Source of the DNA: an uncultured Acidimicrobiia bacterium
GTDB lineage: Bacteria > Actinomycetota > Acidimicrobiia > Spongiisociales > UBA4744
Length of the DNA: 56,801 nucleotides
Assembly (NCBI GenBank): GCA_964594235.1
Contig: CAZQMF010000005.1
Coordinates: forward strand, 1 to 56,801
Reading direction: 5' to 3'
The notes under the pieces are model-generated. The model had not been told where the DNA came from, ran no database searches, and saw nothing but the letters and a program-made list of their open reading frames with translations. Shown in pieces: positions 8,801 to 24,647 of the stretch (positions are counted from its first letter, which is position 1; the number at the start of each line of letters is the position of its first letter). Made by a program: the position numbers and the translations under genes.

Positions 8801-9188
8801 GGACTCCCCTCGCACGTTTCGCTTGGATACGCCGTCGGCGTGCCTCGGGGGGCGGTTTGGTCGGAACGCGAGGCGTCTCCTCGACCAGTGCCTCCCGGAG
8901 GGTTGCGACGAGTCGTCGTCTCGCCGTCTGACGGTTGCGCCATTGCGAGCGTTCCTCGTCGGCGCCGACAACCAGCATCCCGCCCTTCAGTGTGAGCCGT
9001 TCGACCAGCTTGCCTCTCGTCACCTCGTCGAACGCAACGGACGCGCCGACGTCGAACACCAACTCCACGCCGGTGTGCGAACGGTTCGCATGCTGACCTC
9101 CTGGACCGCCGGTTGTGCGAAACCGCCATACGAGCTCGTCGGCCGGGATCTCGATCTGCTCCGTGACGCGGAGTGGGTCACCGCTCAT
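8766..9188 (-). CDS. arfB: Alternative ribosome rescue peptidyl-tRNA hydrolase ArfB
   Basis: GGPGGQHAN (GGQ motif), ERSQWRNR, basic C-terminal tail PTKP...KRARG..KRLR. Confidence 0.88.
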   Translation of the reverse strand: MSGDPLRVTEQIEIPADELVWRFRTTGGPGGQHANRSHTGVELVFDVGASVAFDEVTRGKLVERLTLKGGMLVVGADEERSQWRNRQTARRRLVATLREALVEETPRVPTKPPPEARRRRIQAKRARGVLKRLRRPPEAE

Positions 9189-10468
9189 TGCTCACTCCGT
9201 TTCGGTTTGCCGAGGTCGGTTCGGGGAATCCGATCCACGAGGCTCCACAGTTTGGGCACCTTGTAGCCGGCCAGACGATCCCTGGCCCACGCAGCAAGCT
9301 CGGCCTCGTCGACGGTCGGCGCCACAACGACCGCTCGCAGCGTACGTCCCCACCGTTGGTCGTCCACACCGGTAACGACCACATCCACGACCTGCGGATG
9401 CTGCGACAGCACCGCTTCCACCTCGGCCGGGTACACGTTCTCTCCTCCGGTGATCACCATGTCGTCCAGGCGTCCCAGCACGACGAGCTTTCCCTCGTCG
9501 TCCATCATGCCGGCATCACCCGTGCGGTACGGCCCGACTCGTGGGGTCTGTCGCCAGTACCCGGACGACACCATCGGCCCCTCGACAACGATCTCACCGT
9601 GGTCGATGCCGATAGCTACACCGGGGAGCGGTGTGACCGCGCGGGCACCGGGACGACCCGTTGCCACCTGCGCGGCGGTCTCGGTCGCCCCATATGTGGG
9701 TACTGCGGGAATGCCGAGATCGTTCGCCTGCTCGAGCAGTCCGGGAGGTAGTGGGCCACCCCCGACCAGCACCGTCCTGAGCCGCTCGAACGGTCCCTCG
9801 GCGTAGGGGATGAGTCTCGAGAGCATGTTCGGTACGAATGACGCGAACTCCACGTCGTGAAGTAGCGACGCGGTGCGTTCCGGATCGAAGCGACGCTCCA
9901 GAACAACGGTGCCACCCACATGCACCGACCTGGTCAGGATCGAGAAACCGCCCACGTGGTTGAGTGGTAGGACTGCCAGCCAGCGGTCGCCCGAACGGTG
10001 ACCGAGAAACGAGGCCGATGCGTCTGCTGCAGCGAGCAGGTTCCCCGCCGTCAGCACGACGCCCTTGGGTTCGCCGGTCGAGCCGGACGTGGAGAACACC
10101 GCGACCGGTCGGCTCGCATCGGTCTCGTGAGGTTCGATCTCAGGCCCGTCGAGACCCAGCGGCTCGACGAGTTTCGCATCGAACCTTCGGCACAGTTCGG
10201 CGATTTCGGACCCGGTCAGCGCGGTTCCGATCGGCAACAAGATTCCTCCGGCTCGCGGCACGGCGAGCATCGTGATCACCGCCTCGACCGTCGATTCGGC
10301 CACCACCCCAACCAGCTCACCAGGCTCGATCACCGCGCGCACGTGGCCCGCCTCGCGGCTGATCATCTCCTCCGCGTGGGCGTACGAGATCGACTCCCCG
10401 CCCGTCACGAGGAACGCCGTGTCGGGGATGCGTTTCGCCTGTTCCGACGGCCACTCATTCACCCTCAC
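9185..10468 (-). CDS. menE: o-succinylbenzoate-CoA ligase
   Basis: AMP-binding motifs STSGSTGEPKG, YGATET, TGD, GRLDDMVITGGENV, PRTDLGK; lies next to menB. Confidence 0.85.
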   Translation of the reverse strand: MRVNEWPSEQAKRIPDTAFLVTGGESISYAHAEEMISREAGHVRAVIEPGELVGVVAESTVEAVITMLAVPRAGGILLPIGTALTGSEIAELCRRFDAKLVEPLGLDGPEIEPHETDASRPVAVFSTSGSTGEPKGVVLTAGNLLAAADASASFLGHRSGDRWLAVLPLNHVGGFSILTRSVHVGGTVVLERRFDPERTASLLHDVEFASFVPNMLSRLIPYAEGPFERLRTVLVGGGPLPPGLLEQANDLGIPAVPTYGATETAAQVATGRPGARAVTPLPGVAIGIDHGEIVVEGPMVSSGYWRQTPRVGPYRTGDAGMMDDEGKLVVLGRLDDMVITGGENVYPAEVEAVLSQHPQVVDVVVTGVDDQRWGRTLRAVVVAPTVDEAELAAWARDRLAGYKVPKLWSLVDRIPRTDLGKPKRSEQ

Positions 10469-10497: not shown

Positions 10498-11388
10498 ATG
10501 ACCACAGTCTCAGAGTTGTTCGACCCCGACCGATGGGTAGAGGTCGAACGGTTCGACGACATCACCTACCACCGTGCGATCGATCAAGGCACCGTACGGA
10601 TCGCGTTCAACCGACCGGAAGTCCGCAACGCCTTTCGTCCGCACACCGTCGATGAGTTGCATGCGGCGCTGGACCACGCACGTATGACCACTGACGTGGG
10701 AGTCGTCCTGCTCACCGGCAACGGCCCGTCTCCCAAGGATGGGGGATGGGCGTTCTGCTCCGGGGGGGACCAACGCATCCGAGGCGCCGACGGCTACCTG
10801 TACGAAGACGCCGATGGCGTCGACGCTGCCCGTCTCGGCAGGCTCCACATCCTCGAGGTTCAGCGCCTCATCCGCTTCATGCCGAAGGTGGTCATCGCAC
10901 TCGTACCCGGCTGGGCCGTGGGCGGTGGCCACAGCCTTCACGTGGTATGCGATTTGACGATCGCGTCACGCGAGCACGGGATCTTCAAGCAGACGGACGC
11001 CGACGTCGCGTCCTTCGACGGAGGCTACGGCTCGGCACTCCTCGCCCGCCAGATCGGGCAGAAGCGGGCCAGAGAAGTGTTCTTCCTCGGACGTGACTAC
11101 TCGGCGGACGAGGCGTTGGCGATGGGTGCGATCAACGCGTCGGTGCCGCATGTCGACCTGGAGAAGATCGGGCTCGAGTGGGCGGCCGAGATCAACGGGA
11201 AGAGCCCGACGGCGGTTCGGATGCTCAAGTTTGCCTTCAACCTGCTCGACGACGGCCTGGTCGGCCAACAACTCTTCGCCGGCGAAGCGACCCGTCTCGC
11301 CTACGGCACCGACGAAGCCAGAGAGGGCCGTGACGCGTTCCTCGAGAAGCGCCGGCCCGACTGGTCCCGCTACCCGCACCACTTCTGA
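10498..11388 (+). CDS. menB: 1,4-dihydroxy-2-naphthoyl-CoA synthase
   Basis: AFNRPEVRNAF, FCSGGDQ, LHILEVQRLIR, FKQTDADVASFDGGYG, GQQLFAGEAT. Confidence 0.97.
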   Translation: MTTVSELFDPDRWVEVERFDDITYHRAIDQGTVRIAFNRPEVRNAFRPHTVDELHAALDHARMTTDVGVVLLTGNGPSPKDGGWAFCSGGDQRIRGADGYLYEDADGVDAARLGRLHILEVQRLIRFMPKVVIALVPGWAVGGGHSLHVVCDLTIASREHGIFKQTDADVASFDGGYGSALLARQIGQKRAREVFFLGRDYSADEALAMGAINASVPHVDLEKIGLEWAAEINGKSPTAVRMLKFAFNLLDDGLVGQQLFAGEATRLAYGTDEAREGRDAFLEKRRPDWSRYPHHF

Positions 11389-11389
11389 G

Positions 11390-12283
11390 ATGCCGCCCGA
11401 TCCCGAAACGAGACTCGGTGCCTGGTACCTGGCATCGCGTCCTCACACGCTCCCTGCGGCGGTCGCCCCGGTCGCCGTGGCAGCGGGGTTGGCCATCAAG
11501 GACGGCGTCTTCCGATGGGGTCCCTTCCTCGCAGCTGCGATCGGGGCGCTCGCGATTCAGGTTGCCGCCAATTTCACGAACGACCTATCCGATGCGCGCA
11601 AAGGAGCCGACAACGAGGATCGCATCGGACCGCGCCGTGCGGTCGCGTCGGGGCTGTTGAGCGAACCGGCGATGACGGTCGCCACCGTCATGGCGTTCTC
11701 GGTCGCAACCGCTGCCGGCGTGTACCTCGTCACGCAGGCCGGTTGGATCATCGTCATCGTCGGAGTGGCGTCGATCTTCGCCACGCTGGGATACGTCGGA
11801 GGGCCGCGACCGTACGGGTACCGGGGGCTTGGTGAGGTGTTCGTGTTCGTGTTCTTCGGCCTGGTGGCAACGGTCGTGTCGCGCTTCGTGTACGACCGAA
11901 GCGCCCCTGCCGATGCCTGGCTACTTGCGATCCCCATGGGCTTTCTGGTCACCGCGATCCTGGTCGCGAACAACGTTCGGGACATCGACACCGATCGAGC
12001 GGCAGGCAAGCGGACGCTGGCAGTGATCCTGGGGCGTGAACGAACGCGCGTCTTCTTCGATGTGTTGGTGTGGGGCGCGTTCGTTCTGGTGGTCGTGTTC
12101 GTCGTGGGAGGGTGGACGCCACCGCTGTCCCTCTTGACGCTGCTGGCGGCCCCTTTGGCCGTCCCGATCACCAGAGCCATTCGCACGGCGACTGACGGTC
12201 CCTCCCTGATCGTCGCTCTGAAGGGGATCGCTCGGCTGGACTTGATCTTCGGCCTTCTCCTTGCGCTCGGGGTCGCTCTGTGA
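11390..12283 (+). CDS. menA: 1,4-dihydroxy-2-naphthoate polyprenyltransferase
   Basis: ASRPHTLPAA, ANFTNDLSD, YGYRGLGE, NNVRDIDTDRAAGKRTL; ATG 1 nt after the menB stop. Confidence 0.92.
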   Translation: MPPDPETRLGAWYLASRPHTLPAAVAPVAVAAGLAIKDGVFRWGPFLAAAIGALAIQVAANFTNDLSDARKGADNEDRIGPRRAVASGLLSEPAMTVATVMAFSVATAAGVYLVTQAGWIIVIVGVASIFATLGYVGGPRPYGYRGLGEVFVFVFFGLVATVVSRFVYDRSAPADAWLLAIPMGFLVTAILVANNVRDIDTDRAAGKRTLAVILGRERTRVFFDVLVWGAFVLVVVFVVGGWTPPLSLLTLLAAPLAVPITRAIRTATDGPSLIVALKGIARLDLIFGLLLALGVAL

Positions 12284-12360: not shown

Positions 12361-12380
12361 TAAGGGACTTTCGGCCCTAT
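12361..12380 (+). promoter_or_regulatory. DosR/DevR-type box upstream of the hexaheme lipoprotein
   Basis: TAAGGGACTTTCGGCCCTAT versus mycobacterial consensus TTSGGGACTWWAGTCCCSAA. Candidate -10 TACAGT at 12412-12417. Confidence 0.7.
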
Positions 12381-12443: not shown

Positions 12444-13445
12444 ATGAGACGCTCGTTGTTGCTCTTGGCCGTGCTCGCGCTGGTCGTCGCGGCATGCACA
12501 GGCCCGGCAGGCCCGGTTGGACCCGAGGGTCCCCAGGGTGTCGCCGGTCCTGCGGGACCGCAGGGACCGGCAGGAGAGAACGCCACCTTCACCGCGACCG
12601 ACCTCACGTGCACGGAGTGCCACAACGACGGGTCGACGCTCACCGGCAAGGCCCTCGAGTGGTCGACGTCGGGACATGGAATGGGAACCACGTACCTACG
12701 CGCGACCACTGCCTCGTGCGCGGGATGCCACTCGGGCAACGGCTTCACCGACCGCATCACCGCAGGGATCTCGAATCCCGATGAGGTCGCTGATGGCCAG
12801 CACGACCCGACGAGGGAAGACTGCCGCGCCTGCCACCAGATCCACACCACGTACACCAGCGACGACTTCGCGTTGACGACGACGGACCCGGTGGTCCTGT
12901 ACGCGAGCGGCGAAACGTTCGATCTCGGAATGGGCAACCTGTGCGCCAACTGCCACCAGCCGAGGAGAACCCTCCCCGAGGCCGCTGCGGATGGCACGAT
13001 CGAGATCGACAGCACGCACTGGGGCCCGCACCATGGTCCGCAGTCGGCGGTCATGTTGGGCATCGGCGGTTCGACGGACGGTAGCCCCGCGGCCCACTAC
13101 CAGCTGATTGCAGATGGCTGTCCTGCATGCCATATGGGTGAGAACGCCAACCACTCGTTCGCTCCCGACACGGCCAACTGCCAGGGGTGCCACGAGGGCC
13201 TGGACACGTTCGACTACAACGGTGTCCAAACCGAGATCAAGGATCTCTTCGACCAGCTCGGCCAGGCCCTCCAGGCCAAAGGGCTGCTCGATGCGGACCT
13301 GACGCTGGTTCCAGGAAGCTATCCAGCAGCACAAGCAGGAGCCGCGTGGGACTACGAGATGATCAGCGACGACGGAAGCTGGGGTGTGCACAACCCGGGC
13401 TATGTCAAGGCACTGCTCACCGCAGACATCGCAGCCCTGCAGTAG
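12444..13445 (+). CDS. Hexaheme c-type cytochrome lipoprotein with collagen-like stalk
   Basis: MRRSLLLLAVLALVVAA-C lipobox, then (G-X-Y)9. Six CxxCH: CTECH, CAGCH, CRACH, CANCH, CPACH, CQGCH. C-terminal GSWGVHNPGY; 333 aa. Confidence 0.92.
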   Translation: MRRSLLLLAVLALVVAACTGPAGPVGPEGPQGVAGPAGPQGPAGENATFTATDLTCTECHNDGSTLTGKALEWSTSGHGMGTTYLRATTASCAGCHSGNGFTDRITAGISNPDEVADGQHDPTREDCRACHQIHTTYTSDDFALTTTDPVVLYASGETFDLGMGNLCANCHQPRRTLPEAAADGTIEIDSTHWGPHHGPQSAVMLGIGGSTDGSPAAHYQLIADGCPACHMGENANHSFAPDTANCQGCHEGLDTFDYNGVQTEIKDLFDQLGQALQAKGLLDADLTLVPGSYPAAQAGAAWDYEMISDDGSWGVHNPGYVKALLTADIAALQ

Positions 13446-13465
13446 AACACACGTCGACCCTTGTG

Positions 13466-13492
13466 AGAGCGGCGCCCGTCGGGCGCCGCTCT
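13466..13492 (+). terminator. Hairpin downstream of the lipoprotein cytochrome
   Basis: Perfect 12-bp stem AGAGCGGCGCCC-gtc-GGGCGCCGCTCT, 20 nt after the stop. Confidence 0.65.
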
Positions 13493-13501
13493 TGCGTTCT
13501 C

Positions 13502-13595
13502 AATCTTCAGTCTCCAGTCCTCAGTCCTCAGTCAGAACGCTGCCTGCAGCACCGCTAGACCGTGGGCGAGTGTGGACTACCGAGAACCTAGAGCT
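13502..13595. repeat. Heptamer-armed repeat E2
   Basis: AATCTTC AGTCTCC AGTCCTC AGTCCTC AGTC-AGAACGCTGCC ... GGCGAG.. GACTACC GAGAACC TAGAGCT. Confidence 0.75.
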
Positions 13596-13720
13596 GTCCT
13601 CCCGCTTCCTCCCCGGCGCGCCGAGTGTTGGGGGTCCGGCCGCCCCACCCAAGACTGACACAGTGAGATGTCCGAGGCGCAGACGAGGCCGGAGGGGGCC
13701 GTTCCCACCGATCTGGGCCG

Positions 13721-14089
13721 TCAACCCTTGACCGCAGCGACCCAAAACCGGTGAGCCGTCGCTCGGAGCGGTGCACCCGCCTTTTCGACTTCCGAGTGTG
13801 GCCGCTCGAGGTGCGTGCGATCGCGTCGAACGCCGCTACTCGCCACGGGACCGCTCTCAGGTAGGAGACGAGTGCGCCGACGTCTGAGAACTTCTCCAAG
13901 GACCTCATCGCCGGCATTCACCTCGATCCCGGCCTGCTCGTCCGCGGCAAACGTGAGATCCCATCAGGCAACCTCCGTCCGAACCACGCAACACTTCGCG
14001 GAGCCGTCCCGCTGCGTGAGGAAGACTCCACCGGGTGACCCGTTCGGTCGGCGAGTGGCCTCATGCCGGTTCATGATCAGATCGAACGC
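13721..14089 (-). pseudogene. Degraded C-terminal half of a class I SAM-dependent methyltransferase
   Basis: Collinear family motifs spread over two frames with an internal TGA: AFDLIMNRHEA, PGGVFLTQ, WDLTFAAD, FSDVGALVSYLRAVPW, then LERPH..ATAHRFWVAAVKG*. No N-terminal SAM-binding motif. Confidence 0.7.
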
Positions 14090-14183
14090 TCTCAGCCATC
14101 AGCCATCAATGACGAAGCTGCTCACCGCGAGCCGCGGTTCATGATTCGGGCGGATGACTGATGACTCAGGACTGAAGACTCAG
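14090..14183. repeat. Heptamer-armed repeat E3
   Basis: Left TCTC AGCCATC AGCCATC; right GATGACT GATGACT CAGGACT GAAGACT CAG, which overlaps the cytochrome stop codon. Confidence 0.75.
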
Positions 14184-15772
14184 TACCCCTGCTCGGGTGT
14201 GTGGCACGAGGTGCATTTCTCTATCTTCCATGCGCCCCCGATCGGAACGGGATGCTTGAAATCGAGACCGTTGATGCTGGAGTCGAGATCGGCGAGGTTC
14301 GCAGATTGTCCTTGCGCGGTGATGATGTGGCACACGTCACACTCCGACGAGACCGTTGTCCCGTCATACGTCTGGAGATCCGAGTTGTGGCATCTGAAGC
14401 AGCCGTCGTTGGTGAAGTGGCTGAGGTTGTTCTCACGAGTCCTGTAGTCGGTCTTCATCTCGGGGAAGAAGTTCTGGTTGTAGATCACCACTAGCGTCGC
14501 GGCCGCCTGGTCGACCTTCGCCTGATCCACGGTGCCCGCATACTTCTCTGAATAGAACGCCTCGAGACCCGTCCTGATGGCTTCGTCGGCCTGGTCCCTG
14601 GTCGTGTAGGGAGCGTTCAGGAGGTTGAGCCCCTCCCATCGCACGAACGGCAGGTCGGTCGAGATGGTGCCCTTGGTCATCTCGAGGTTGATAGCGGTGG
14701 CCGGCGGCTCGTAGTCGTGACTTGGCCTGTTGTGGCAGTCGATGCAGTCGAGCGTCCTCACTTCGATGCCTGCGGCGTTCAAGTCGACCTGCTGACCGTT
14801 CTTCCAGTACTCGGTCACCTTGTCGGTCGTCTTGTCGGTCAGCCGAACCCAGACCATGTCCTGTCGTTTCGGATCGTCGGTCGCGTACTCGATCGTGGTG
14901 CTGCCGAGCATATGCCAGTGGATGCCTCCCACCTGGCCGGTTCTCGGGTCACCGCCACCGATCTTGACAGCGAGACTGATCGTCCACGGAGTGTTGTTCT
15001 CGTCCGTGCGGAAGTACGTCTTCGTGACGAGCTTGTCGCCGTAGAACTGCTGGGGCCAGTGACATCCTTCGCACGTCTCCTGCGCGGGACGGAGGCTGGT
15101 CACCGGAGTGACGATAGGCCGATCGTAGGTATTGGTGATCGTCTTCCACACCTGCCGCAAACCGTCGATCTTCGACCTCACGAAGAACGATGCGCCCGGT
15201 CCGATGTGGCACTGGGCGCAGGCAACCTTGGCGTGCGGCGAATGCTGGTATGTGACCCACTCCGGTTCCATTACGGTGTGGCACGACTCGCCACAGAACG
15301 ACGACGAGTCGGTCACCTCGTACCCCTTGAACCCGCCCCATGCGACCGTACCAACGAGTACAGCGGAAAGGACGCCGAATATCGCGAGGGACCGCATGTA
15401 CCTGGGGCTGGACGGCTCAACGCGAAGATTGAACCGGATGCGCTCGCCGCGCTTGCGGGCTCTCACGACCTGGATCCGGATCGCGATCGCAAACAGAATC
15501 GCGCCCAACAGGACGATTACAGGGAACCCGATGAAGGTAACGAGTCCCCTATACGGGTTGGAGACGGGTGAACTGAGGTCGACGAACGCCAGGACCGCGA
15601 ATCCCAACAGCCCTGCGAGTACCAACGCCCCACCGACGGCAGCGAGCGGATGTCGGTACAGGCTCCGTACCTCGGTCTTCACCTCTTCGGTGTCGGTGCC
15701 GTTGCCGCCGGTGTTCTCGTCGCTACCGGTGTTCTCGGTGTTCTCGGCCGAATCCTCGATCTCGTCGCTCAC
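14180..15772 (-). CDS. imcH: ImcH-like membrane multiheme cytochrome c (NapC/NirT N-terminal domain, 7 heme motifs)
   Basis: Three N-terminal TM helices. CGESCH, SPHAKVACAQCHIGPGA, LRPAQETCEGCHWP, GIHWH, DCIDCHNRP, NFFP, GCFRCH, CDVCH, CTSCH. GTG start with GAGGAGG RBS. Confidence 0.88.
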   Translation of the reverse strand: MSDEIEDSAENTENTGSDENTGGNGTDTEEVKTEVRSLYRHPLAAVGGALVLAGLLGFAVLAFVDLSSPVSNPYRGLVTFIGFPVIVLLGAILFAIAIRIQVVRARKRGERIRFNLRVEPSSPRYMRSLAIFGVLSAVLVGTVAWGGFKGYEVTDSSSFCGESCHTVMEPEWVTYQHSPHAKVACAQCHIGPGASFFVRSKIDGLRQVWKTITNTYDRPIVTPVTSLRPAQETCEGCHWPQQFYGDKLVTKTYFRTDENNTPWTISLAVKIGGGDPRTGQVGGIHWHMLGSTTIEYATDDPKRQDMVWVRLTDKTTDKVTEYWKNGQQVDLNAAGIEVRTLDCIDCHNRPSHDYEPPATAINLEMTKGTISTDLPFVRWEGLNLLNAPYTTRDQADEAIRTGLEAFYSEKYAGTVDQAKVDQAAATLVVIYNQNFFPEMKTDYRTRENNLSHFTNDGCFRCHNSDLQTYDGTTVSSECDVCHIITAQGQSANLADLDSSINGLDFKHPVPIGGAWKIEKCTSCHTPEQGY

Positions 15773-15792
15773 GGTCCCTCCTCGAGGCACCG

Positions 15793-15859
15793 ACGGTAGC
15801 CGGTGCCCAGTCCCCTCCCGTAGGGCTGATAGACCCTTCTACGGGACTCCTGTCCCCTT
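15793..15859 (-). promoter_or_regulatory. imcH-like promoter: two adjacent DosR-type 20-mers plus -10 TACCGT
   Basis: 15840-15859 TACGGGACTCCTGTCCCCTT (perfect GGGAC-N4-GTCCC) and 15820-15839 GTAGGGCTGATAGACCCTTC. The -10 at 15798-15793 would centre the boxes near -63.5 and -43.5. Confidence 0.7.
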
Positions 15860-15916: not shown

Positions 15917-17221
15917 TCACAGGCCCCGCACGAGTTCCTCGATGGACGGCCCCTCCACCACCTCGATGCCGTACGTCACACGGGTTCCAGGCATCTCGAG
16001 ATCGAGCAACGGCAGCAGGTTGACGGGTGTGGCGACGATCACCACATCCGGCTTGGATCGTCTGATCGTTTCTGCGAGTTCGTCCCGCTGGACCTGCCCA
16101 TAGCCCATGGCGGGAAGCAGCGCCCCGATGTGCGGGTACTTCTCGAACGTTGCAGCGATCGACCCGACGGCGAACGGTCTCGGGTCGATCAGTTCGGCCG
16201 CTCCTCCGGTCTGGGCCGCGATGACTCCCGCACCGTACGCCATGCTTCCGTGGGTGAGGGTCGGACCGTCCTCGATGACGAGCACCCGCTTCCCCACGAT
16301 GAACTGGGGATCGGCGACGGTGATCGGTGACGTCGTCTTCACGAGGATGGCACCGGGGTTTGCGAGCCGCACATTCCGAACCACCTGGTCGACGTCATCC
16401 GGTTTGGCCGTCCCGACCTTGTTCACGACGACCACGTCGGCCCGTCGAAGGTTGGCTTCACCCGGCCAGTACCGCAGTTCGTGTCCGGGACGGTGGGGAT
16501 CGACGACGCAGATGTGCAGATCCGGTCGATAGAACGGCAGGTCGTTGTTGCCTCCATCCCACAGGATGACGTCGGCCTCTTGCTCGGCGACCTTCAGGAT
16601 GGCCCCGTAGTCGACACCGGCGAAGATCACCCCACCCTGTTCGATGTAGGGCTCGTACTCCTCGCGCTCTTCGATCGTGCAGTCCGCATCGATGAAATCC
16701 TGGTACGTCGCGAACCGCTGGACGGCCTGCGCGGCGAGGTCTCCGTAGGGCATCGGATGCCTGACTGCCGCGACCCGCTTCCCGTCGCCGGCGAGGGCGT
16801 GCCATACGGCTCGACTGAGTGGCGACTTGCCGGAACCCGTCCGAACGGCTGTGACTGCAACGACAGGGAGACGCGAGTCGATCATCGTCTCTGAGCCGAG
16901 CAACTCGAACGATGCGCCGGCCGCCACCGTCCGAGCGGCCATGTGCATCACATGCTCATGGGTGACATCCGAGTACGAAAAGACCGCGGTGTCGACCGCA
17001 TATGCCGCAATCAATCGCTCCAACTCCACTTCGGACACGATCGGGATGCCGTCGGTGTACAGAGGTCCGGCGAGCGCGGCGGGGTATCTCCGATCGTCGA
17101 TGTTGGGGATCTGTGTGGCAGTGAACGCGACCACCTCTACGTCGGGATCATCGCGATACATCACATTGAAGTTGTGGAAGTCCCGCCCTGCGGCGCCCAA
17201 GATCAGTATCCGCTTGCCCAT
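15917..17221 (-). CDS. Cyclic 2,3-diphosphoglycerate synthetase-like P-loop NTPase (COG2403-like)
   Basis: ILGAAGRDFHNFN, AVRTGSGKS, VRHPMPYG, CTIEEREEYE, WDGGNND, EDGPTLTHG. Confidence 0.8.
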   Translation of the reverse strand: MGKRILILGAAGRDFHNFNVMYRDDPDVEVVAFTATQIPNIDDRRYPAALAGPLYTDGIPIVSEVELERLIAAYAVDTAVFSYSDVTHEHVMHMAARTVAAGASFELLGSETMIDSRLPVVAVTAVRTGSGKSPLSRAVWHALAGDGKRVAAVRHPMPYGDLAAQAVQRFATYQDFIDADCTIEEREEYEPYIEQGGVIFAGVDYGAILKVAEQEADVILWDGGNNDLPFYRPDLHICVVDPHRPGHELRYWPGEANLRRADVVVVNKVGTAKPDDVDQVVRNVRLANPGAILVKTTSPITVADPQFIVGKRVLVIEDGPTLTHGSMAYGAGVIAAQTGGAAELIDPRPFAVGSIAATFEKYPHIGALLPAMGYGQVQRDELAETIRRSKPDVVIVATPVNLLPLLDLEMPGTRVTYGIEVVEGPSIEELVRGL

Positions 17222-17251
17222 ACCTATCCTCCTCGGTTCCATTCTCGTCCG

Positions 17252-18010
17252 TCAACTGCTCCCGACCAGAAACCGGCCCACCTCGTCAGCGACCTTGTCG
17301 GGCGCTTCACCAATCACAGCATGACCCGCTCCTTCCACCGTGACAAGCATCCCGCGTGGAGCTGCAGAGGCGATTCGCGTGCCGATCGCAACGTAGGCAG
17401 GGTCGAGTGCACCAGCGACGACCAGCACTGGCATCCGGAGCTCCCCCAGTCGGCCACCGAAGTATGGTTGAGAGCCCTGACCCATTCCGCGAAGCGCGGC
17501 TGCGAGCCCCGCTGTGCGGTTCTCGAGACGAAGCTTCCTGTCCCGTTCACACCACTCGGATCCACGACGGTGCAGGCCATCGAGCAACGGCTGAGCGAGC
17601 CAGCGATCGATGAACGGCTCGAGTCCCTCGCTCTCGATCCGGTCGGCGAGCACGGCGTCCGACTTCAGCCGATCTCTGCGCAGGCCTGGATCGGCGATTC
17701 CGGGGCTGGACGACACGAGGATCAGGTGAGATACCGACCGGGGATACTCGACGGCTACTCCCAACGCGATGCGCCCGCCCTGTGAGTAGCCGAGGAGGGG
17801 CCTGCGCTCGACGGTCTGCGCCACCGACCTCACGGCCGACTCGAAGGCGGGCGGAATGCCACCCGCTGCTCCATGGCCGGGCAGATCCGGTGCGTCCACC
17901 TGCCACGGAAGGAACGCAGCGAACTCCTCGAACATCCCTCCGTGCTGTGTGAAGCCATGCAACGCGACGATCGCCGGTTCGACGCCTGGGAATCTTCGAA
18001 CGGTTTCCAT
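17252..18010 (-). CDS. menH: SHCHC synthase (alpha/beta hydrolase)
   Basis: LHGFTQ, GYSQGGRIAL, FIDRWLAQPLL, LRGMGQGSQP, GAGHA; divergent from menD. Confidence 0.85.
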   Translation of the reverse strand: METVRRFPGVEPAIVALHGFTQHGGMFEEFAAFLPWQVDAPDLPGHGAAGGIPPAFESAVRSVAQTVERRPLLGYSQGGRIALGVAVEYPRSVSHLILVSSSPGIADPGLRRDRLKSDAVLADRIESEGLEPFIDRWLAQPLLDGLHRRGSEWCERDRKLRLENRTAGLAAALRGMGQGSQPYFGGRLGELRMPVLVVAGALDPAYVAIGTRIASAAPRGMLVTVEGAGHAVIGEAPDKVADEVGRFLVGSS

Positions 18011-18018
18011 CGCCTGTA

Positions 18019-19656
18019 TTGTTGCTCCCCGTGAACGACAGCGCCTATCAGGCGGCCGCCCTATTCGTCGATGCGCTCGCACGACTCGGGCTTCGCCACG
18101 CGTGCGTCACGCCCGGATCTCGAAGCACTCCCCTCGCCCTGGCGTTCGCCGAGCATCCTGACGTCGCCGACTGGATCCACCACGACGAACGGTCATCGGC
18201 GTTCTTTGCCCTCGGAATCGCGAAAGTGACTCGAACTCCCGCCGCGATCATCACCACATCCGGCACAGCTGCGGCCGAACTCCTCCCTGCTGCCGTCGAA
18301 GCACGCCACGCGGGGGTTCCCCTGCTCTTGCTCACCGCCGACCGGCCCCCCGAGCTCAGAGGAATCGGCACTCCGCAGACGATCGACCAGGTGAACCTGT
18401 TTGCGAACGCGACCCGAATGTCGCTCGATGTCCTCCTGGTGGACATGCCTACGGGAGAAGTCGAGGCGCTCGCCGTGACGGCGTGGAGTGAGGCGGTGCG
18501 AAGACCCCGTCGCCCCGTCCACATCAACATGGCATTCCGAGAACCCTTCGTACCCACGACACTCGACCGACCCAGGGCGTCGGTGACTCCGACGCGAACA
18601 ACCGATCCCGTCCTCGAGGAGGACGAGCTCCGCGAGATGTCATCGATGCTCGGTGCGAAGCGTGCCCTGACGATTGCCGGCCCAATCGACGAGCCGGGGT
18701 TCCCCGACCATGTTCTCGCGTTGGCGACGACCTCCGGGTGGCCGATCGTCGCGGACCCTCTGAGCCAGCTCCGGAGCAAGGTTTCCGATCTCGTCCTCGA
18801 TGCCGGGGACGCCCTGTTTGCCGCCGGTCGTCTGCCGGCGAAGCCCGAGGTGATCGTCCGGCTCGGGGCAACGGTCACGTCGAAGGCGATCTCCTCCTGG
18901 CTGGCGGATCATCGGAAGATTCCACAGGTCGTCGTCGACGAAGAAGGTCGGGACGCGTCGCGCAGCGCAGCGAAGGTTCTCTCCATCGACCCGATCACGT
19001 TCGTTCGTTCACTCCAAGTGGAGCCGGCCCCCGACGAGTGGGCCGACCAGTGGACGGACGCCGACCGGCGAGCACGCGCCGCGCTTCGAGGATCACCATT
19101 TCCTTCGGAACCAGCGGTGGTCGAGATCCTTGCCGAGTGCCTCCCCATCGAGTCGGTGCTCTTCGTGGCATCGTCCATGCCGATTCGCAATGTCGACCGA
19201 TACCTTTCACGGGTCGATGCCCGCGTCCTGTCCAACAGGGGCGCAAACGGGATCGACGGCCTGATCTCATCTGCACTGGGTGTCGCAGCGACGGGGCGGC
19301 GCACATTCGTACTGGCCGGTGATCTCTCGTTGTTGCATGACGTAGGTTCCCTTGCGACTGCCGTTCGACTCGACCTTCCGATCACGATCGTCGTCGTGAA
19401 CAACGATGGCGGCGGGATCTTCTCGTTCCTCCCCCAGGTGGCGCTTCCCCGCCACTTCGAGCGTGTCTTCGGCACACCCCACGGCCTCTCGTTCGTGCCC
19501 ATCGCCGACGCATTCGGGCTCCGCGCCGTGCACGCCGACACCGCCGATCGGCTGGCATCGGAACTCGCCCTACCAGGCCTCATAGAGGTGACGACCGACA
19601 GGGCTCGCGAAGTCGAGCTGCAGGCAAGAGCCCTCGAGAGAGTCGCGTCGTCGTAG
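18019..19656 (+). CDS. menD: SEPHCHC synthase (ThDP-dependent)
   Basis: PGSRSTPL, DERSSAFFALG, TTSGTA, LTADRPPEL, SNRGANGIDG, GDLSLLHD, NNDGGGIF. Start may be GTG at 18031. Confidence 0.95.
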   Translation: MLLPVNDSAYQAAALFVDALARLGLRHACVTPGSRSTPLALAFAEHPDVADWIHHDERSSAFFALGIAKVTRTPAAIITTSGTAAAELLPAAVEARHAGVPLLLLTADRPPELRGIGTPQTIDQVNLFANATRMSLDVLLVDMPTGEVEALAVTAWSEAVRRPRRPVHINMAFREPFVPTTLDRPRASVTPTRTTDPVLEEDELREMSSMLGAKRALTIAGPIDEPGFPDHVLALATTSGWPIVADPLSQLRSKVSDLVLDAGDALFAAGRLPAKPEVIVRLGATVTSKAISSWLADHRKIPQVVVDEEGRDASRSAAKVLSIDPITFVRSLQVEPAPDEWADQWTDADRRARAALRGSPFPSEPAVVEILAECLPIESVLFVASSMPIRNVDRYLSRVDARVLSNRGANGIDGLISSALGVAATGRRTFVLAGDLSLLHDVGSLATAVRLDLPITIVVVNNDGGGIFSFLPQVALPRHFERVFGTPHGLSFVPIADAFGLRAVHADTADRLASELALPGLIEVTTDRAREVELQARALERVASS

Positions 19657-19658
19657 CG

Positions 19659-20786
19659 TCAGCCGGTCAGGACATCGAGGATCGCTGCGAGTTTCGCCTC
19701 GGTCTCGGCCACCTCGGCTGCCGGGATGGAATCCCGGACGATCCCGGCCCCCGCGTAGACCTGCGCGATCGAGCTACGAAACAGAGTCCCTCGGAGAGCG
19801 ATGATGGCCTCTCCGTCGCCGTTCTCATCCATCCAGCCCAGCGCTCCCGCGTACCACCCCCGGTCGAATGGCTCGTTCTCTTTGATGAAGAGGAGTGCAG
19901 CATCGGTTGGCGTGCCCGCAACGGCAGGGGTCGGGTGCAACGCCTGCGCGAGGTCGATGAGGCTGACGCCCGGGAGCGCCGTTCCAACGATCTCCGTCCC
20001 GAGGTGTTGAATGTTGGGCAGGCGAACCACCGATGGCGTGTCGGGGACGGCCAGCTCGGTCGTGACGGCCCTCAAGATGCGAGCGACCTCGTCGACGACG
20101 ATTCGATGTTCCTCGCCTTCCTTCGAAGCAGCGAGCAGTGCGATCGCGATCCGTTCGTCGTCATCATGCCCTGTCCCACGAGGGGCGCTCCCAGCGAGTG
20201 GGAACGACCGGACGGACGCGCCATGTCTCTCGATGAGCAGTTCCGGGCTGGCACCGAGAAACGCGGTCCCCTGCTCGATCCACCCGTAGAGGAACGTGTT
20301 CGGAAACCGTTCACCCATCGGGGCAAGAAGATCGAAGGGATGCCCGCGCTCCACGGCGACGTCGACCCGCCGAGCGAGCACGACCTTCGACAGCACGCCG
20401 GAGTCGATCTCGTCTATAGCTCGTCTGACGAGCCCGGCCCACTCATCCGCCGTGGGCACTTCGGCAACCACCCGACCTCTCGGCACATCGGGCGGCCCCG
20501 GCACACGAAGTGACTCGAGGAGACCCTCCGCACCGGGCGCGGTATGGACCCGAACCCCCTCGTCGTCCTTGACGACGGTTACCGCCGGAACCACGACGCT
20601 GCCGGCCGACTTCGGCTCGAAAGGAAGCACGAACATGCACCGTGGACCCTCGGGACGCGGCGTTCTCAGATCGGCGGAGCGCCACGCGACACCGATCCCG
20701 GCGAACTCCTCCCTGCCCCGGAAGTAGACAACCGGGTGCCCGGCCGCGGCCCCGGCCCTGGCTACGTCGAAGGGTTCCGGTTCCAC
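19659..20786 (-). CDS. menF: Isochorismate synthase
   Basis: KVVLARR, GASPELL, LAGSAPRG, KEGEEHRIVV, LHPTPAVAG, RGWYAG, AGAGIVRDS. Start uncertain. Confidence 0.88.
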   Translation of the reverse strand: MEPEPFDVARAGAAAGHPVVYFRGREEFAGIGVAWRSADLRTPRPEGPRCMFVLPFEPKSAGSVVVPAVTVVKDDEGVRVHTAPGAEGLLESLRVPGPPDVPRGRVVAEVPTADEWAGLVRRAIDEIDSGVLSKVVLARRVDVAVERGHPFDLLAPMGERFPNTFLYGWIEQGTAFLGASPELLIERHGASVRSFPLAGSAPRGTGHDDDERIAIALLAASKEGEEHRIVVDEVARILRAVTTELAVPDTPSVVRLPNIQHLGTEIVGTALPGVSLIDLAQALHPTPAVAGTPTDAALLFIKENEPFDRGWYAGALGWMDENGDGEAIIALRGTLFRSSIAQVYAGAGIVRDSIPAAEVAETEAKLAAILDVLTG

Positions 20787-20796
20787 GGCGGGCAGT

Positions 20797-21576
20797 CTAC
20801 GAGTCGAAGTACCCGACGATCTCATCGGCCACCAAACCGGGCCGTTCCATCGGAAGGAAGTGCGACGCGCCGGCAACGATCTCGTAGCGGGCGTTGGGCA
20901 TTCGTCTGGTCAGAGCGGCGGTCGACGCGTCGCTGAGCGTCGTGGAGTTCTCCCCGGCGAGTACAAGTACAGGACACCCAACTTCGTCGAGTCGGTCGTA
21001 CAGGCCGTGCGCTGTCGCGGCTCGGTACACCTCGGCCTCCACTTCCGGCCTGCACTTGAGCCACCAGCGGCCGTCTCGCTCGACGAATCCTCCGTCGACG
21101 TAGGCGGCGAGGACATCGGGACTCCAGGACGCAAAGGGGTCTTTGCCCCGGTAGTTGTCGATGATGGCCTCGCGGCTATGGAATCCGTCCCGCCGCCGCA
21201 GCGCGCCTTCGGCAAGAGGAATGTGCTCCATTCTCCTGTACGGCGGGGGGAAGATGATCGGTTCGATAACGACGAGCGCCTTGAACCGGCCGGGTCGTAG
21301 CACCTCCGCCATGAGCAGTGTTGCTCCTCCCATCGAGTGGCCCACCCCGATTGGGTGACCATCGAACGGTTCGAGGACGTCCAGCGCGTGGCGAGCGAAG
21401 GACCACCAGTCCGCCGGGGGAACGAACCCGTTGGCATCGCCGTGACCGGGGGCGTCCCAGGCGGTGAACGGTCGCCCGGCGAGCTGTTCTCCGACCGGCC
21501 CCCACACCTCCTTGCAGAATCCGGTCGCGTGGGCGAACGCGACGAACTCGGAGTTCACTCTCGTCTCAACCGTCAT
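20797..21576 (-). CDS. Alpha/beta hydrolase
   Basis: HATGF, DAPGHG, nucleophile elbow GHSMGG, C-terminal HFLPME. Confidence 0.88.
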   Translation of the reverse strand: MTVETRVNSEFVAFAHATGFCKEVWGPVGEQLAGRPFTAWDAPGHGDANGFVPPADWWSFARHALDVLEPFDGHPIGVGHSMGGATLLMAEVLRPGRFKALVVIEPIIFPPPYRRMEHIPLAEGALRRRDGFHSREAIIDNYRGKDPFASWSPDVLAAYVDGGFVERDGRWWLKCRPEVEAEVYRAATAHGLYDRLDEVGCPVLVLAGENSTTLSDASTAALTRRMPNARYEIVAGASHFLPMERPGLVADEIVGYFDS

Positions 21577-22201
21577 CCACGTCGAAGGCGACGTGAGACT
21601 CCAGCCTGACCACGCCGTCGATGCGACGAATCAGCGCCTCCAGGAGCCGCGCGTCGGTCGCGGTCGGCGCGGTACCGGAGATCGTCACCACCCCGTTCGC
21701 GACATCGACATCGAGCGAGTTCGCTTCCAAGAGGAGCACTCGTTTGACGATGTCTTCGCGGATCTCGTCTTCGATCACGTCGTCGGGTCGCGTGAATACG
21801 GCCACCACGTCGGCCCTGCTGATGATTCCGACCAGCGCTCCGCTCGAGTCGACCACAGGAAGCCTCTTCACGTGGTGGTGTGCCATCACACGGGCGGCTT
21901 CCGTGACAGTCGCTTCGGGAAAGATGACGACCGGTTCGCGCGTCATCACCTCACCAACCGTTTCGGCATCGACGATCGGACCGCGCTCTTCGATCATTGC
22001 ACTGAGGAGTCGCCGCTGAGGTCGATCCGCTTCCCTCTCGAGGAAGTCCGCCTCGGTGATGATTCCGACCAGCGTGCCCGATTCGTCGACGACTGGGAGT
22101 CCGCTGACACCGGCTCCGACCATCACGCGGGCAGCCTCCTTGAGGTAGGTCGATGGCGTGGTCGTGATCACATCGATGGTCATGATGTCGAGGACCCTCA
22201 C
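21566..22201 (-). CDS. CBS-domain pair plus C-terminal BON domain protein
   Basis: VSGLPVVD..GIITEAD and VKRLPVVD..GIISRAD, then DVDVANGVVTISG. GTG overlaps the USP stop (GTGA). Confidence 0.9.
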   Translation of the reverse strand: MRVLDIMTIDVITTTPSTYLKEAARVMVGAGVSGLPVVDESGTLVGIITEADFLEREADRPQRRLLSAMIEERGPIVDAETVGEVMTREPVVIFPEATVTEAARVMAHHHVKRLPVVDSSGALVGIISRADVVAVFTRPDDVIEDEIREDIVKRVLLLEANSLDVDVANGVVTISGTAPTATDARLLEALIRRIDGVVRLESHVAFDVDDG

Positions 22202-22629
22202 GTGCACGGTCCCTTCACCACGAGCACATCGCACGAGGAAAGGTGCACGACCCTGTGGCTCGTGCTACCCAACACGAGCGCTGCGAGTTCGCCCCGTCCT
22301 CTCGATCCGACGACGATGAGCTCAGCCTCGACCTTCTTGGCGTACTCGACGAGCGCATCCGCCGGATATCCGTCCAGGTCGACCTTGTGGATGTCCACCG
22401 AGGTATCGACAATCAGTGGATCGACGACACTCCATACGAGTTCCCGCTGCGACTGCACCAATGTTGAGAGATCGGCCGGCACCTGACTCAGCGCTCCGAG
22501 CAGGCTGCTCGGGATGTGCGATACGTGCACGACATGGAGATCGGTCCCTCGAGACTCGGCAAACTCCACCGCTCGTCGAACCGCGAGAAGCGAGTGCTCC
22601 GATCCGTCCGTCCCAACGACGATACTCAT
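22198..22629 (-). CDS. Universal stress protein (UspA family)
   Basis: IVVGTDGSEHS, LIVVGSRGRG, LGSTSHRVVH; start MSIVVG overlaps the response-regulator stop. Confidence 0.93.
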   Translation of the reverse strand: MSIVVGTDGSEHSLLAVRRAVEFAESRGTDLHVVHVSHIPSSLLGALSQVPADLSTLVQSQRELVWSVVDPLIVDTSVDIHKVDLDGYPADALVEYAKKVEAELIVVGSRGRGELAALVLGSTSHRVVHLSSCDVLVVKGPCT

Positions 22630-23294
22630 GACTCCTCCCACTGTTCCGGCGGATACTCCCGCTCGCGTTTGGCCGCGAGTCGTGCCGAGTAGGCCGCAGC
22701 TTCCGTCCTGCGTGTCATTCCGAGCTTGTTCAGAAGGTTCGACACATAGTTCTTGACCGTCTTCTCGGCGAGGAACAGCTCTTCTGCGATCTCCTTGTTC
22801 GTGAGGCCCTCTGAGATCAAGTCGAGGATCTTGCGCTCCTGGGGCGACAGCCTCGCCACGAGCGGATCGGTTGGTTCGTCGCCACGGATCCGACGGAAGA
22901 CATGTTCGGTCATCGTCGGGTCGAGGAGCGACTCGCCGGCGCCGACTCGGCGGATGCTGTCGATCAGCTGGCGAGCATCGACGCGCTTGAGGACGTAGCC
23001 CGACGCACCGGCCATGATCGACGCGAACAGAGCCTCTTCGTCGGCGAATGACGTCAGCATCAGCACGCGCACGTCCGGCCAGCGTGAACGGATCTCTCTG
23101 CACGCCTCGATGCCGGTCCCGTCTGGCAAACGCACATCCATGACGACCACTTCCGGCCGGTCGTACCCCACACGGCGAATGGCCGATTCGACGGTGCCCG
23201 CCTCGCCGACGACCTCGAGGCCGTCCTCTCCGCCGAGCAGCGTCACCAGACCCTTTCTCACGATCTCGTGGTCATCGACGATCAGAATCCGCAC
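22626..23294 (-). CDS. dosR: DosR/DevR-like NarL-family response regulator
   Basis: VDDHEIVRKGL, DVRLPDG, LTSF, GASGYVLK, GESLLDP. HTH EGLTNKEIA..FLAEKTVKNYVS carries the same recognition helix as M. tuberculosis DevR. Confidence 0.85.
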   Translation of the reverse strand: MRILIVDDHEIVRKGLVTLLGGEDGLEVVGEAGTVESAIRRVGYDRPEVVVMDVRLPDGTGIEACREIRSRWPDVRVLMLTSFADEEALFASIMAGASGYVLKRVDARQLIDSIRRVGAGESLLDPTMTEHVFRRIRGDEPTDPLVARLSPQERKILDLISEGLTNKEIAEELFLAEKTVKNYVSNLLNKLGMTRRTEAAAYSARLAAKREREYPPEQWEES

Positions 23295-23330
23295 ATGTCC
23301 TCCTTACCTTTTCAGGCTACCGGGTCGGGC

Positions 23331-23491
23331 GGTCTTGGGTTCTCGGTCTTGGGTTCTCGGTAAGAGGGATCCCTTCGCTCGCCCTTCTGAGTTCATGGTT
23401 CTCGGTCTTCGATGAGACCGTCGCTGTCCCGTGGACTCGTGGTCTCCGGGATCGCGCTCCTACCCACAACCGACAACCGAGAACCCAAGAC
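23331..23491. repeat. Heptamer-armed repeat E4, followed by GC hairpin 23493-23511
   Basis: (GGTCTTG GGTTCTC)x2 GGT ... ACCCACA ACCGACA ACCGAGA ACCCAAG AC; the arms share a 16-nt perfect complement. Confidence 0.85.
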
Positions 23492-23531
23492 GGGGCGGGC
23501 TCCGCCCGCCCTGGCACTAGCCTGATCGACA

Positions 23532-24647
23532 ATGACGCGGCCCATGATCCCCGCCTCGCGGCTCTCCGACCTGATCGGTGCGGCAGCACGTGTCACCGGT
23601 CAGACCGAACTCACCGCAGTCCTGGAGACGGTGGTGGCAACTGCCATGGACCTGACGGGAGCACCGTACGGCGCCCTCGGCGTCGTCAGCGAGAACGGCC
23701 AGCTCATCCAGTTCGTCCATCAGGGCATGCCCGAGAAGATCGCTGAGCTGATCGGTGCACCTCCGAAGGGTCGGGGTCTGCTCGGTGCGGTTACATGGCA
23801 GCCAAACCCGATCCGGCTCGAGAATGCCCAATCCCACCCTCGTGCCAGCGGCTTTCCCAAGCATCATCCGCAGCTCGACGGCTTTCTCGGTGTCTCGATC
23901 CGCATCGGCGGCGACGTATTCGGAAACCTGTATCTCGGAGCGTCGCAAGGAGGCTTCACAGAACAGGATGAGACGCTGATCCAGGCCCTCGCGCTCATCG
24001 CAGGGTCGGCGATCTCGACTCTCAGGCTGCAGGCGCGGCTTCGGAGGGCCGCCGTCCTGGAGGACCGTCAGCGCATCGCTCGGGACCTCCACGACTCCAT
24101 CATCCAGGACCTCTTCGCCGTCGGTCTGTCCCTCCAGGCTCTCACATCCCGCCTCTCCGACCCCGAGATGCGCACGAGCCTGGAGGAGGCCGCACTGCAT
24201 CTCGACGACTCGATCACCGCGCTGCGACGGTTCATCTTCGATCTTCGTCCGGCCACCCTGGGCACGCGCAATCTCAAGGACGAGCTGTCGGAGCTGCTCG
24301 GACGCCTGGCCGTTCCCTACGAAGCAAGCATCGGCATCGGCGTGACCGGTCCAGTCGACGACCTCGTTCCGGAACTGGTCGACAACGTTCTCCAGATCAC
24401 GAGGGAAGCGGTGAGCAACGCGTTGCGCCACTCGGGAGCGGACGTGGTGAGTATCTCCGTCAGTCGAGGCATCGATCGGCTCGTATTGACGGTCGTCGAC
24501 AAGGGCAAGGGCTTCGACATCGAATCGATCGCCCGCGGCATGGGTCTCGACAACATCCGGAGCCGCGCCGAGACGGCAGGGGGCGAGGCCGACGTGGAGA
24601 GCAAGGTTGGTGAGGGGACCACCGTTCGGGTGGTGCTTCCTCTCTAG
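23532..24647 (+). CDS. DosS/DosT-like sensor kinase: single heme-type GAF + HisKA_3 + HATPase
   Basis: YGALGV, GFPKHHP, FGNLYL (DosS GAF-A motifs); IARDLHDSIIQ H-box; EAVSNALRH, VVDKGKGF, GMGLDNI. Confidence 0.88.
   Translation: MTRPMIPASRLSDLIGAAARVTGQTELTAVLETVVATAMDLTGAPYGALGVVSENGQLIQFVHQGMPEKIAELIGAPPKGRGLLGAVTWQPNPIRLENAQSHPRASGFPKHHPQLDGFLGVSIRIGGDVFGNLYLGASQGGFTEQDETLIQALALIAGSAISTLRLQARLRRAAVLEDRQRIARDLHDSIIQDLFAVGLSLQALTSRLSDPEMRTSLEEAALHLDDSITALRRFIFDLRPATLGTRNLKDELSELLGRLAVPYEASIGIGVTGPVDDLVPELVDNVLQITREAVSNALRHSGADVVSISVSRGIDRLVLTVVDKGKGFDIESIARGMGLDNIRSRAETAGGEADVESKVGEGTTVRVVLPL

Follow-up and report, generated by a model that had tools for sequence, protein, structure and literature searches.

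The stretch of DNA analysed here (the window, 56,801 nucleotides from an uncultured Acidimicrobiia bacterium of soil or sediment) carries on its minus strand a gene predicted to encode a heptahaem cytochrome of the ImcH type, convergent with a gene for a six-haem lipoprotein and enclosed by menaquinone synthesis genes. ImcH (GSU3259) of Geobacter sulfurreducens is a heptahaem menaquinol oxidase of the inner membrane, which is required for the use of extracellular acceptors of high potential (PMC4251993; bioRxiv 10.1101/2023.05.03.539133), and the family is defined by three helices, a CX3CH motif beside the membrane domain, six CXXCH motifs and similarity to NapC/NirT over helix 3 and haems 1-3 (PMC4251993; PMC6295460). 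An initial annotation of the window had placed an ImcH-like gene at 14180-15772, which matches exactly a gene of 530 amino acids read from a GTG start codon. The features of the gene and its predicted product are as follows:

14180..15772, minus strand: imcH-like gene (stop codon included), encoding a 530-amino-acid heptahaem inner-membrane cytochrome
15326..15652, minus strand: N-terminal membrane domain of ImcH, three transmembrane helices, residues 41-149 (hydropathy, charge count, AlphaFold2)
15119..15382, minus strand: NapC/NirT/NrfH-like quinol-dehydrogenase region, helix 3 and first haem motifs (Pfam PF03264, alignment with NrfH 2j7a_C)
15278-15295, minus strand: haem 1 motif CGESCH, an atypical CX3CH (translation, as for the six below)
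15206-15220, minus strand: haem 2 motif CAQCH
15059-15073, minus strand: haem 3 motif CEGCH
14732-14746, minus strand: haem 4 motif CIDCH
14387-14401, minus strand: haem 5 motif CFRCH
14327-14341, minus strand: haem 6 motif CDVCH
14201-14215, minus strand: haem 7 motif CTSCH

The minus-strand open reading frame (ORF) spans 14180..15790. The GTG at 15772 was taken as the probable start because a GGAGG lies just 5' of it and because independent gene calls in two other assemblies, like the database representative, give a product of 530 amino acids. All 14 cysteines of the translated protein fall within the seven motifs (one CX3CH and six CXXCH), while among 20,000 shuffled versions of the sequence the maximum was two haem motifs and 98% contained none. 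Comparison with three orthologues (loci L001-L003) indicated purifying selection, with a ratio of non-synonymous to synonymous substitution rates (dN/dS) of 0.09-0.15. By these measures imcH is a real, functional-looking gene of the ImcH family.

Three hydrophobic segments were identified (residues 41-72, 74-106 and 125-149), all of them before the first haem motif, and the AlphaFold2 model places long helices at the same locations (42-67, 73-107 and 123-154). The loop between helices 2 and 3 holds 10 lysine or arginine residues and is predicted to be cytoplasmic, an orientation in which the N-terminus would be cytoplasmic as well and the haem domain external. The CGESCH motif occupies residues 160-165, 11 residues past helix 3, and a CX3CH motif was found at this point in 23 of 23 homologues examined. 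The three helices, the seven haem motifs and the ImcH-type segments described in the initial annotation were borne out by translation, hydropathy, the AlphaFold2 model and a 69-sequence alignment, in which SPHAKV.C..CH.GPGA, LRPA.ETCE.CHWP, GIHWH, DC.DCHNRP and NFFP were invariant or near-invariant.

Comparison with G. sulfurreducens GSU3259 was made by its published residue numbers, not its sequence, and a Geomonas (Geobacteraceae) protein was taken as the ImcH orthologue on the grounds of residue numbering and architecture; a database search seeded with it gave, among the 120 matches listed, Geobacteraceae and Desulfuromonadales proteins, none of them named G. sulfurreducens. The order and spacing of the haem motifs were common to 23 of 23 family members taken from genome loci, the Geomonas protein included, with distances of 25/49/109/115/20/42 residues in the window protein and 25/49/108/117/20/42 in the Geomonas one (L052). 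The Geomonas protein also carries the segments listed above, except that NIFP replaces NFFP. The window protein shared 39% identity with it over 486 amino acids with four gaps (E 3e-130), and 36% identity over 488 amino acids with a protein of Geobacter sp. DSM 9736 (E 1e-116). Both values sit within the 31.5-49% range published for Geobacter ImcH and its homologues in other bacteria (PMC6295460).

The initial annotation had named, as one finding that would speak against an ImcH identity, closest kinship with NrfH/NapC partners of known terminal reductases. The N-terminal region of NapC/NirT (PF03264) did match residues 137-224 of the 536-amino-acid form of the protein (2e-12), and in a PDB sequence search the only match at E <= 0.001 was NrfH (2j7a chain C, 1.9e-6), with five more at E 0.04-0.3. 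The NCBIfam models for NrfH, NapC/NirT and TorC cover only this N-terminal region of ImcH, and all scored far under their cut-offs: 53.3 bits against 134.2 for NrfH (TIGR03153), which is also at odds with seven haems and three helices, 25.5 against 310.6 for NapC/NirT/CymA (TIGR02161) and 29.3 against 478.2 for TorC (TIGR02162). These identities were rejected. From its architecture, collinear spacing, 36-39% identity and conserved quinol-site residues, the predicted protein is a genuine ImcH-family inner-membrane heptahaem cytochrome c, as the initial annotation had held.

In a published proposal for G. sulfurreducens ImcH, His137 and Gln179 are the ligands of haem 1, and the menaquinol site is lined by Glu127, Lys173 and Tyr188 (Pimenta 2023, bioRxiv 10.1101/2023.05.03.539133). 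Residues D155, H165, K201, Q207 and Y216 of the window protein (530-amino-acid numbering) align with E127, H137, K173, Q179 and Y188, and the Geomonas homologue has E, H, K, Q and Y at the published positions minus one. In 24 aligned family members the lysine and histidine were invariant and the glutamine differed in one; the putative site of the window protein also includes M168. Six more histidines are conserved, five of them invariant and H287 nearly so, and these can serve, to judge from the alignment, as distal ligands of haems 2-7.

A maximum-likelihood tree of 48 proteins grouped the Acidimicrobiia ImcH sequences in one clade (Shimodaira-Hasegawa-like approximate likelihood ratio test 96), adjoining sequences of Zixibacteria, Ignavibacteriota and Calditrichota with which the window protein shares 51-59% identity, and a long branch parts this side of the family from a group of Geobacteraceae, Bacteroidota, Myxococcota and Acidobacteriota. 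Among 301 sampled Acidimicrobiia genomes, imcH was found in 12, all from one order and representing six families and 8 of 136 genera, three of these genomes having two copies. A survey of ImcH homologues in 2018 had recorded a single member from Actinobacteria, atypical and with one helix (PMC6295460), and a lake metagenome study had remarked that Actinobacteria nearly lacked electron-export genes. No description of an ImcH clade in Acidimicrobiia was found in the literature searched, and what is new here is a canonical ImcH clade across six families of one Acidimicrobiia order, with which a widespread family now takes in a monoderm lineage.

The genome to which the window belongs is a metagenome-assembled genome (MAG) of 1.94 Mb, 88% complete. 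An actinobacterial monoderm host had been suggested at the outset, and this agrees with the loci nearest to the window, which are labelled uncultured Acidimicrobiia, and with a search for Omp85/BamA, which found none in this genome while the same search was positive in seven diderm control genomes; the lack of Omp85 supports a monoderm host. The genome encodes two haem-copper oxidases and cytochrome bd, and with three terminal oxidases the host is most readily seen as an aerobe. System II (ResBC) is the usual route of cytochrome c maturation in Actinomycetota, and the initial annotation had pointed to ccsA/ccsB (resB/resC) as the genes to look for. That expectation did not hold, ResB being absent from the genome. 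Maturation is provided for by System I instead, with CcmB, CcmC, CcmE (with its HxxxY motif), CcmF and a thioredoxin-like CcmG encoded on contig C59, so the objection that the host might lack cytochrome c maturation falls away. CcmE was present in 278 of the 301 sampled genomes, so that System I is the norm of the class and not something tied to ImcH.

Only four multihaem ORFs were found in the whole 88%-complete genome: ImcH, the six-haem lipoprotein, a lipoprotein cytochrome of 10 or more haems on contig C19 and, on contig C20, a NapC-like protein with five haems. No small soluble cytochrome shuttle was seen among these four. The C20 gene (C20:13864-14457, plus strand) encodes a second NapC/NirT-like protein of 198 amino acids with a single N-terminal helix and five CXXCH motifs, and has no obvious reductase gene alongside. 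The C19 gene (C19:29261-30331, plus strand), which lies outside the window and runs off the end of its contig, encodes a multihaem cytochrome with a lipoprotein signal and at least 10 CXXCH motifs. It has an in-frame TGA at C19:29507-29509, and 11 nt further on a 6-bp hairpin (GCCTCA-GGT-TGAGGC) with a geometry like that of a selenocysteine insertion sequence (SECIS). SelA is encoded in the same genome (C12:25399-26487, E 3e-105), and no tRNA-Sec was found by aragorn in the 88%-complete assembly; the C19 protein may be a selenocysteine-containing multihaem cytochrome, or its gene a pseudogene.

Around imcH, the following genes were assigned by NCBIfam and Pfam, apart from the two cytochrome genes and one gene that has no family assignment:

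9185-10468, minus strand: menE
10498-11388, plus strand: menB
11390-12283, plus strand: menA
12444..13445, plus strand: candidate ImcH electron acceptor, a 333-amino-acid lipoprotein with a lipobox, a (Gly-X-Y)9 stalk and six CXXCH motifs, convergent with imcH
15917-17242, minus strand: 441-amino-acid gene without family assignment, between the menH-like gene and imcH
17252-18082, minus strand: menH-like gene
18019-19656, plus strand: menD
19659-20876, minus strand: menF

The gene order in the window is therefore menE, menB, menA, six-haem lipoprotein, imcH, 441-amino-acid gene, menH-like gene, menD and menF. The host is predicted to make menaquinone, and its men genes physically enclose imcH. 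The same placement of imcH between menE-B-A and menH-D-F was seen in L001-L003 and in the genomes G078, G126 and G270 of the same family (L003 matches as far as its sequence reaches, ending before the position of the lipoprotein). In a Bacteroidota MAG (L051, DSEO01000201.1, 854-7916) imcH is directly followed by menF, menD, menB and menA, which by gene content is an independent second linkage of imcH to menaquinone genes. The Zixibacteria and Ignavibacteriota relatives carry imcH within clusters of 7- to 21-haem cytochromes.

In the sister genera (L079 in G078:C26, L081 in G126:C14 and L083 in G270:C41) the island within the men genes is larger than in the window. There it adds a ten-haem lipoprotein of 745-791 amino acids, an eight-haem lipoprotein of 420-433 amino acids whose lipobox and collagen-like stalk are of the same kind, and a nine-haem cytochrome anchored in the membrane by its C-terminus, which is encoded between the 441-amino-acid gene and imcH. 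The cytochromes of eight, nine, ten and twelve haems that neighbour imcH in sister genomes have no homologues in the window's genome (E 1e-5 for the nine-haem family). The lineage of the window is thus, on gene content, one with a reduced island, in which the multihaem genes of the sister genera have been lost or replaced.

The 441-amino-acid protein gave no Pfam, NCBIfam or PDB sequence match and only faint P-loop similarities (LpxK, CobW and CbiA, E 0.005-0.08). Its gene keeps a constant position and is 77-94% identical across the family, above the flanking men genes; it could supply a missing step of the menaquinone pathway (no menC was seen among the genes of the cluster) or encode an accessory factor. 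The gap between the two convergent cytochrome genes (13446-14179, 734 bp) contains no called gene and no Rfam match, and at the protein level it does not resemble the genes that occupy the corresponding space in the sister genera. Some 380 nt of it nearest imcH are strongly conserved in L001 and L002, with insertions and deletions that are not multiples of three, and inverted runs of a 7-nt repeat (CAGTCCT / AGGACTG), which recurs at many other sites in the genome, flank it.

The initial annotation had suggested the neighbouring lipoprotein as a plausible partner of ImcH, and this idea gained support. The lipoprotein gene adjoins imcH in the window, L001 and L002 and lies 3 kb from it in G198, and in other phyla four loci (L019, L029, L039 and L043) have homologues no more than 6 kb away from imcH. 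The lipobox and the collagen-like stalk are kept by the homologues beside imcH in two Bacteroidota MAGs. At L029 (77-2212, minus strand) a 13-haem fusion has as its C-terminal part a homologue of the six-haem lipoprotein and as its N-terminal part an eight-haem domain of the GHPYKLN... type, which G078 has in its stalked eight-haem protein; this predicted fusion hints at joint action of the two cytochrome families. Across the 301 Acidimicrobiia genomes, ImcH was present in 12, the full-length lipoprotein in 8 and both in 7, a statistically significant co-occurrence (Fisher P = 1.5e-10 by genome, 9e-7 by genus) between genes that were mostly on different contigs. Co-occurrence and repeated linkage together support a functional pairing of ImcH and the lipoprotein. 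It had also been argued that a monoderm host needs a partner other than a periplasmic shuttle. The part of this concerning the partner stands, as no soluble shuttle was seen and the lipoprotein is supported; the part that derived the partner from the envelope does not, since the pairing with stalked homologues is also found in diderm Bacteroidota, which rules out the lipoprotein as a solution specific to monoderms.

Candidate regulatory features were found upstream of both cytochrome genes and beside menF:

15843-15856, minus strand: DosR-type palindrome GGGACAGGAGTCCC, a perfect GGGAC-N4-GTCCC, in the 144-bp region upstream of imcH
15823-15836, minus strand: weaker DosR-type copy GGGTCTATCAGCCC, 20 bp downstream of the perfect box in the same 144-bp region
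12364-12377: DosR-type box with one mismatch, 67-80 nt before the lipoprotein start codon
22626-23294, minus strand: NarL/LuxR-type response regulator (Pfam), the candidate regulator
23532-24647, plus strand: GAF-HisKA_3 sensor kinase with a single GAF domain (Pfam), divergent from the regulator

The DosR/DosS-like pair lies with a USP and a CBS-BON protein at 21.5-24.6 kb, directly beside menF (region 20797-24647). Eight other Acidimicrobiia loci (L001-3, L005 and L087-90) have a box with at most one mismatch upstream of imcH; a scan of five FCB-type and Bacteroidia diderm loci found none. It is where the boxes lie, and the fact that relatives too have them before imcH, that is suggestive of DosR-type control, not how many there are. 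A scan for sigma-70 promoters and terminators was uninformative.

The reading that we favour, at a probability of roughly 0.62, is that ImcH acts as a menaquinol oxidase which feeds an extracytoplasmic cytochrome chain, likeliest through the adjacent lipoprotein, as a low-oxygen outlet. The catalytic direction, partner, regulation and final acceptor would then be as follows. Three helices would anchor ImcH, with the C-terminal haem domain facing outward from the cytoplasmic membrane; menaquinol would bind beside haem 1 and be oxidised there, its two protons being released outside. By analogy with Geobacter ImcH, for which menaquinol oxidation is reported to have been measured as electroneutral, this step would itself be electroneutral. 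The electrons would move through the seven haems in turn, as far as haem 7 at the distal end of the soluble domain, and pass, there being no PpcA-type periplasmic shuttle, to an acceptor that is most likely the six-haem lipoprotein, held by its stalk at the membrane surface. From the lipoprotein they would go to an acceptor outside the cell or in the wall zone, for instance Fe(III), humics or a further cytochrome. The outlet would keep the menaquinone pool oxidised at low oxygen, the proton gradient being made upstream, for example by NADH dehydrogenase. The three oxidases, the DosR-type boxes before both cytochrome genes and the nearby DosR/DosS-like pair together make a low-oxygen role likely. 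A stronger form of the proposal, in which the pair is a self-sufficient two-protein outlet from menaquinol to the surface, switched by a DosR-type system and wired into menaquinone synthesis in aerobic monoderm Acidimicrobiia, is tentative and in our view rather doubtful.

Several observations weigh against the favoured reading. The lipoprotein gene is convergent with imcH, so the two are not expected to be co-transcribed, and the 9-triplet stalk, about 8 nm long if triple-helical, is too short for a typical Gram-positive wall. The DosR-type pattern occurred 4 times in the window against 5.6 expected, which is not above chance. The AlphaFold2 model of ImcH, built free of haem, is of moderate confidence (mean predicted local distance difference test score 72, below 50 around haems 1-2), and a Foldseek search with it found no structural match in the PDB (best E 0.25), which holds no deposited ImcH structure. 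The window protein is placed by the tree outside the Geobacter subclade, so its function is extrapolated across 36-39% identity. Finally, 5 of the 12 ImcH-positive Acidimicrobiia genomes have no full-length homologue of the lipoprotein, and most of these five have the nine-haem, C-terminally anchored cytochrome beside imcH.

These last absences, together with the want of a shared operon, bear on the identity of the partner. ImcH might oxidise menaquinol and pass the electrons to something other than the adjacent lipoprotein, such as the C19 multihaem lipoprotein with its possible selenocysteine, leaving the six-haem lipoprotein further downstream or in a separate pathway. Most other Acidimicrobiia do have the nine-haem cytochrome beside imcH in the same orientation, and C19 does encode a second multihaem lipoprotein; we nevertheless regard a different partner as unlikely, because this genome yielded no homologue of the nine-haem family at E 1e-5, no homologue of the C19 protein was found near any imcH locus examined, and the six-haem lipoprotein co-occurs strongly with imcH and is linked to it repeatedly across three phyla.

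It appears improbable, and decidedly so, that ImcH and the lipoprotein form a quinol-dependent reductase of a soluble substrate (nitrite, hydroxylamine, sulfite or other) on the plan of NrfH-NrfA, and not an extracellular chain. The N-terminal part of ImcH is NrfH-like, NrfH being its best PDB sequence match, small soluble oxidants can be reduced in vitro by OcwA, and a short stalk would hold the lipoprotein near the membrane and not beyond the wall; against this, the NrfH and NapC models scored far under their cut-offs, neither protein showed a CXXCK or any other motif of a catalytic haem, and the nearest ImcH relatives lie in large clusters of 8- to 21-haem cytochromes, which are typical of electron export. 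Characterised ImcH, moreover, serves extracellular acceptors (PMC4251993). A chain running in reverse, in which an external donor such as Fe(II) would reduce the lipoprotein, then ImcH and finally menaquinone, seems very remote. It draws on the fact that relatives of CymA and CbcL/MtoC have been implicated in both directions, whereas the organisms in which ImcH homologues are so far known all export electrons (PMC6295460). Fe(II) oxidation is known from some cultured members of the Acidimicrobiia, which speaks for the reverse direction; in the window's genome no Cyc2 or other marker of iron oxidation was seen, though no search aimed at one was made.

Three gateways are known that lead from the quinone pool to extracellular electron acceptors, and ImcH is one of them. 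The tiny cytochrome inventory of this host, with four multihaem ORFs, the link to menaquinone genes and a named candidate partner make for a simple and testable system, which bears on how electrons might leave menaquinol in a walled monoderm and on which protein ImcH reduces. Were the two-protein outlet to prove true, the stalked lipoprotein, and not a PpcA-type shuttle, would be the general partner of ImcH outside the Geobacter lineage, and cytochrome-based extracellular respiration, overlooked by current marker-gene surveys, would take place in some of the abundant Actinomycetota of soil and sediment. It is suggested that this ImcH subfamily and the stalked lipoprotein be added to the marker sets for electroactive bacteria.

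Compared with known systems, the window protein shares with NrfH (Desulfovibrio vulgaris, 2j7a chain C) and with NapC/NirT/CymA a membrane-proximal quinol module, in which a helix is followed by haems and a lysine lies near haem 1. NrfH is a single-helix protein with four haems, the first of them in a CXXCHxM motif, and has NrfA as its partner, whereas the window protein has three helices, seven haems, a CX3CH motif with predicted His/Gln ligation and no NrfA partner, the only multihaem gene adjoining it being that of the six-haem lipoprotein, in which there is no CXXCK motif. The Gram-positive Thermincola potens moves respiratory electrons outward through membrane-anchored and wall-associated multihaem c-type cytochromes, which are more numerous and larger than those of the window host; to our knowledge it has not been reported to use an ImcH-type quinol oxidase.

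With Geobacter ImcH the window protein has in common the three N-terminal helices, the CX3CH followed by six CXXCH motifs at collinear spacing, the NapC/NirT-like region, the conserved lysine, tyrosine, glutamine (the haem 1 distal ligand) and acidic residue of helix 3, a length of about 500-530 amino acids and an apparently monocistronic gene. It differs in having aspartate for glutamate in helix 3 and an acidic N-terminal extension of some 35 residues, and its gene is embedded in a men cluster with DosR-type boxes upstream, in a host that is predicted to be a monoderm aerobe with four multihaem ORFs in place of 60-90 and with no PpcA-type shuttle. The closest proteins outside Acidimicrobiia are those of Zixibacteria, Ignavibacteriota and Calditrichota, annotated as 'NapC/NirT family cytochrome c', which are identical in architecture; these belong to diderm hosts with large clusters of 7- to 21-haem cytochromes, whereas in the window a single six-haem lipoprotein stands beside imcH.

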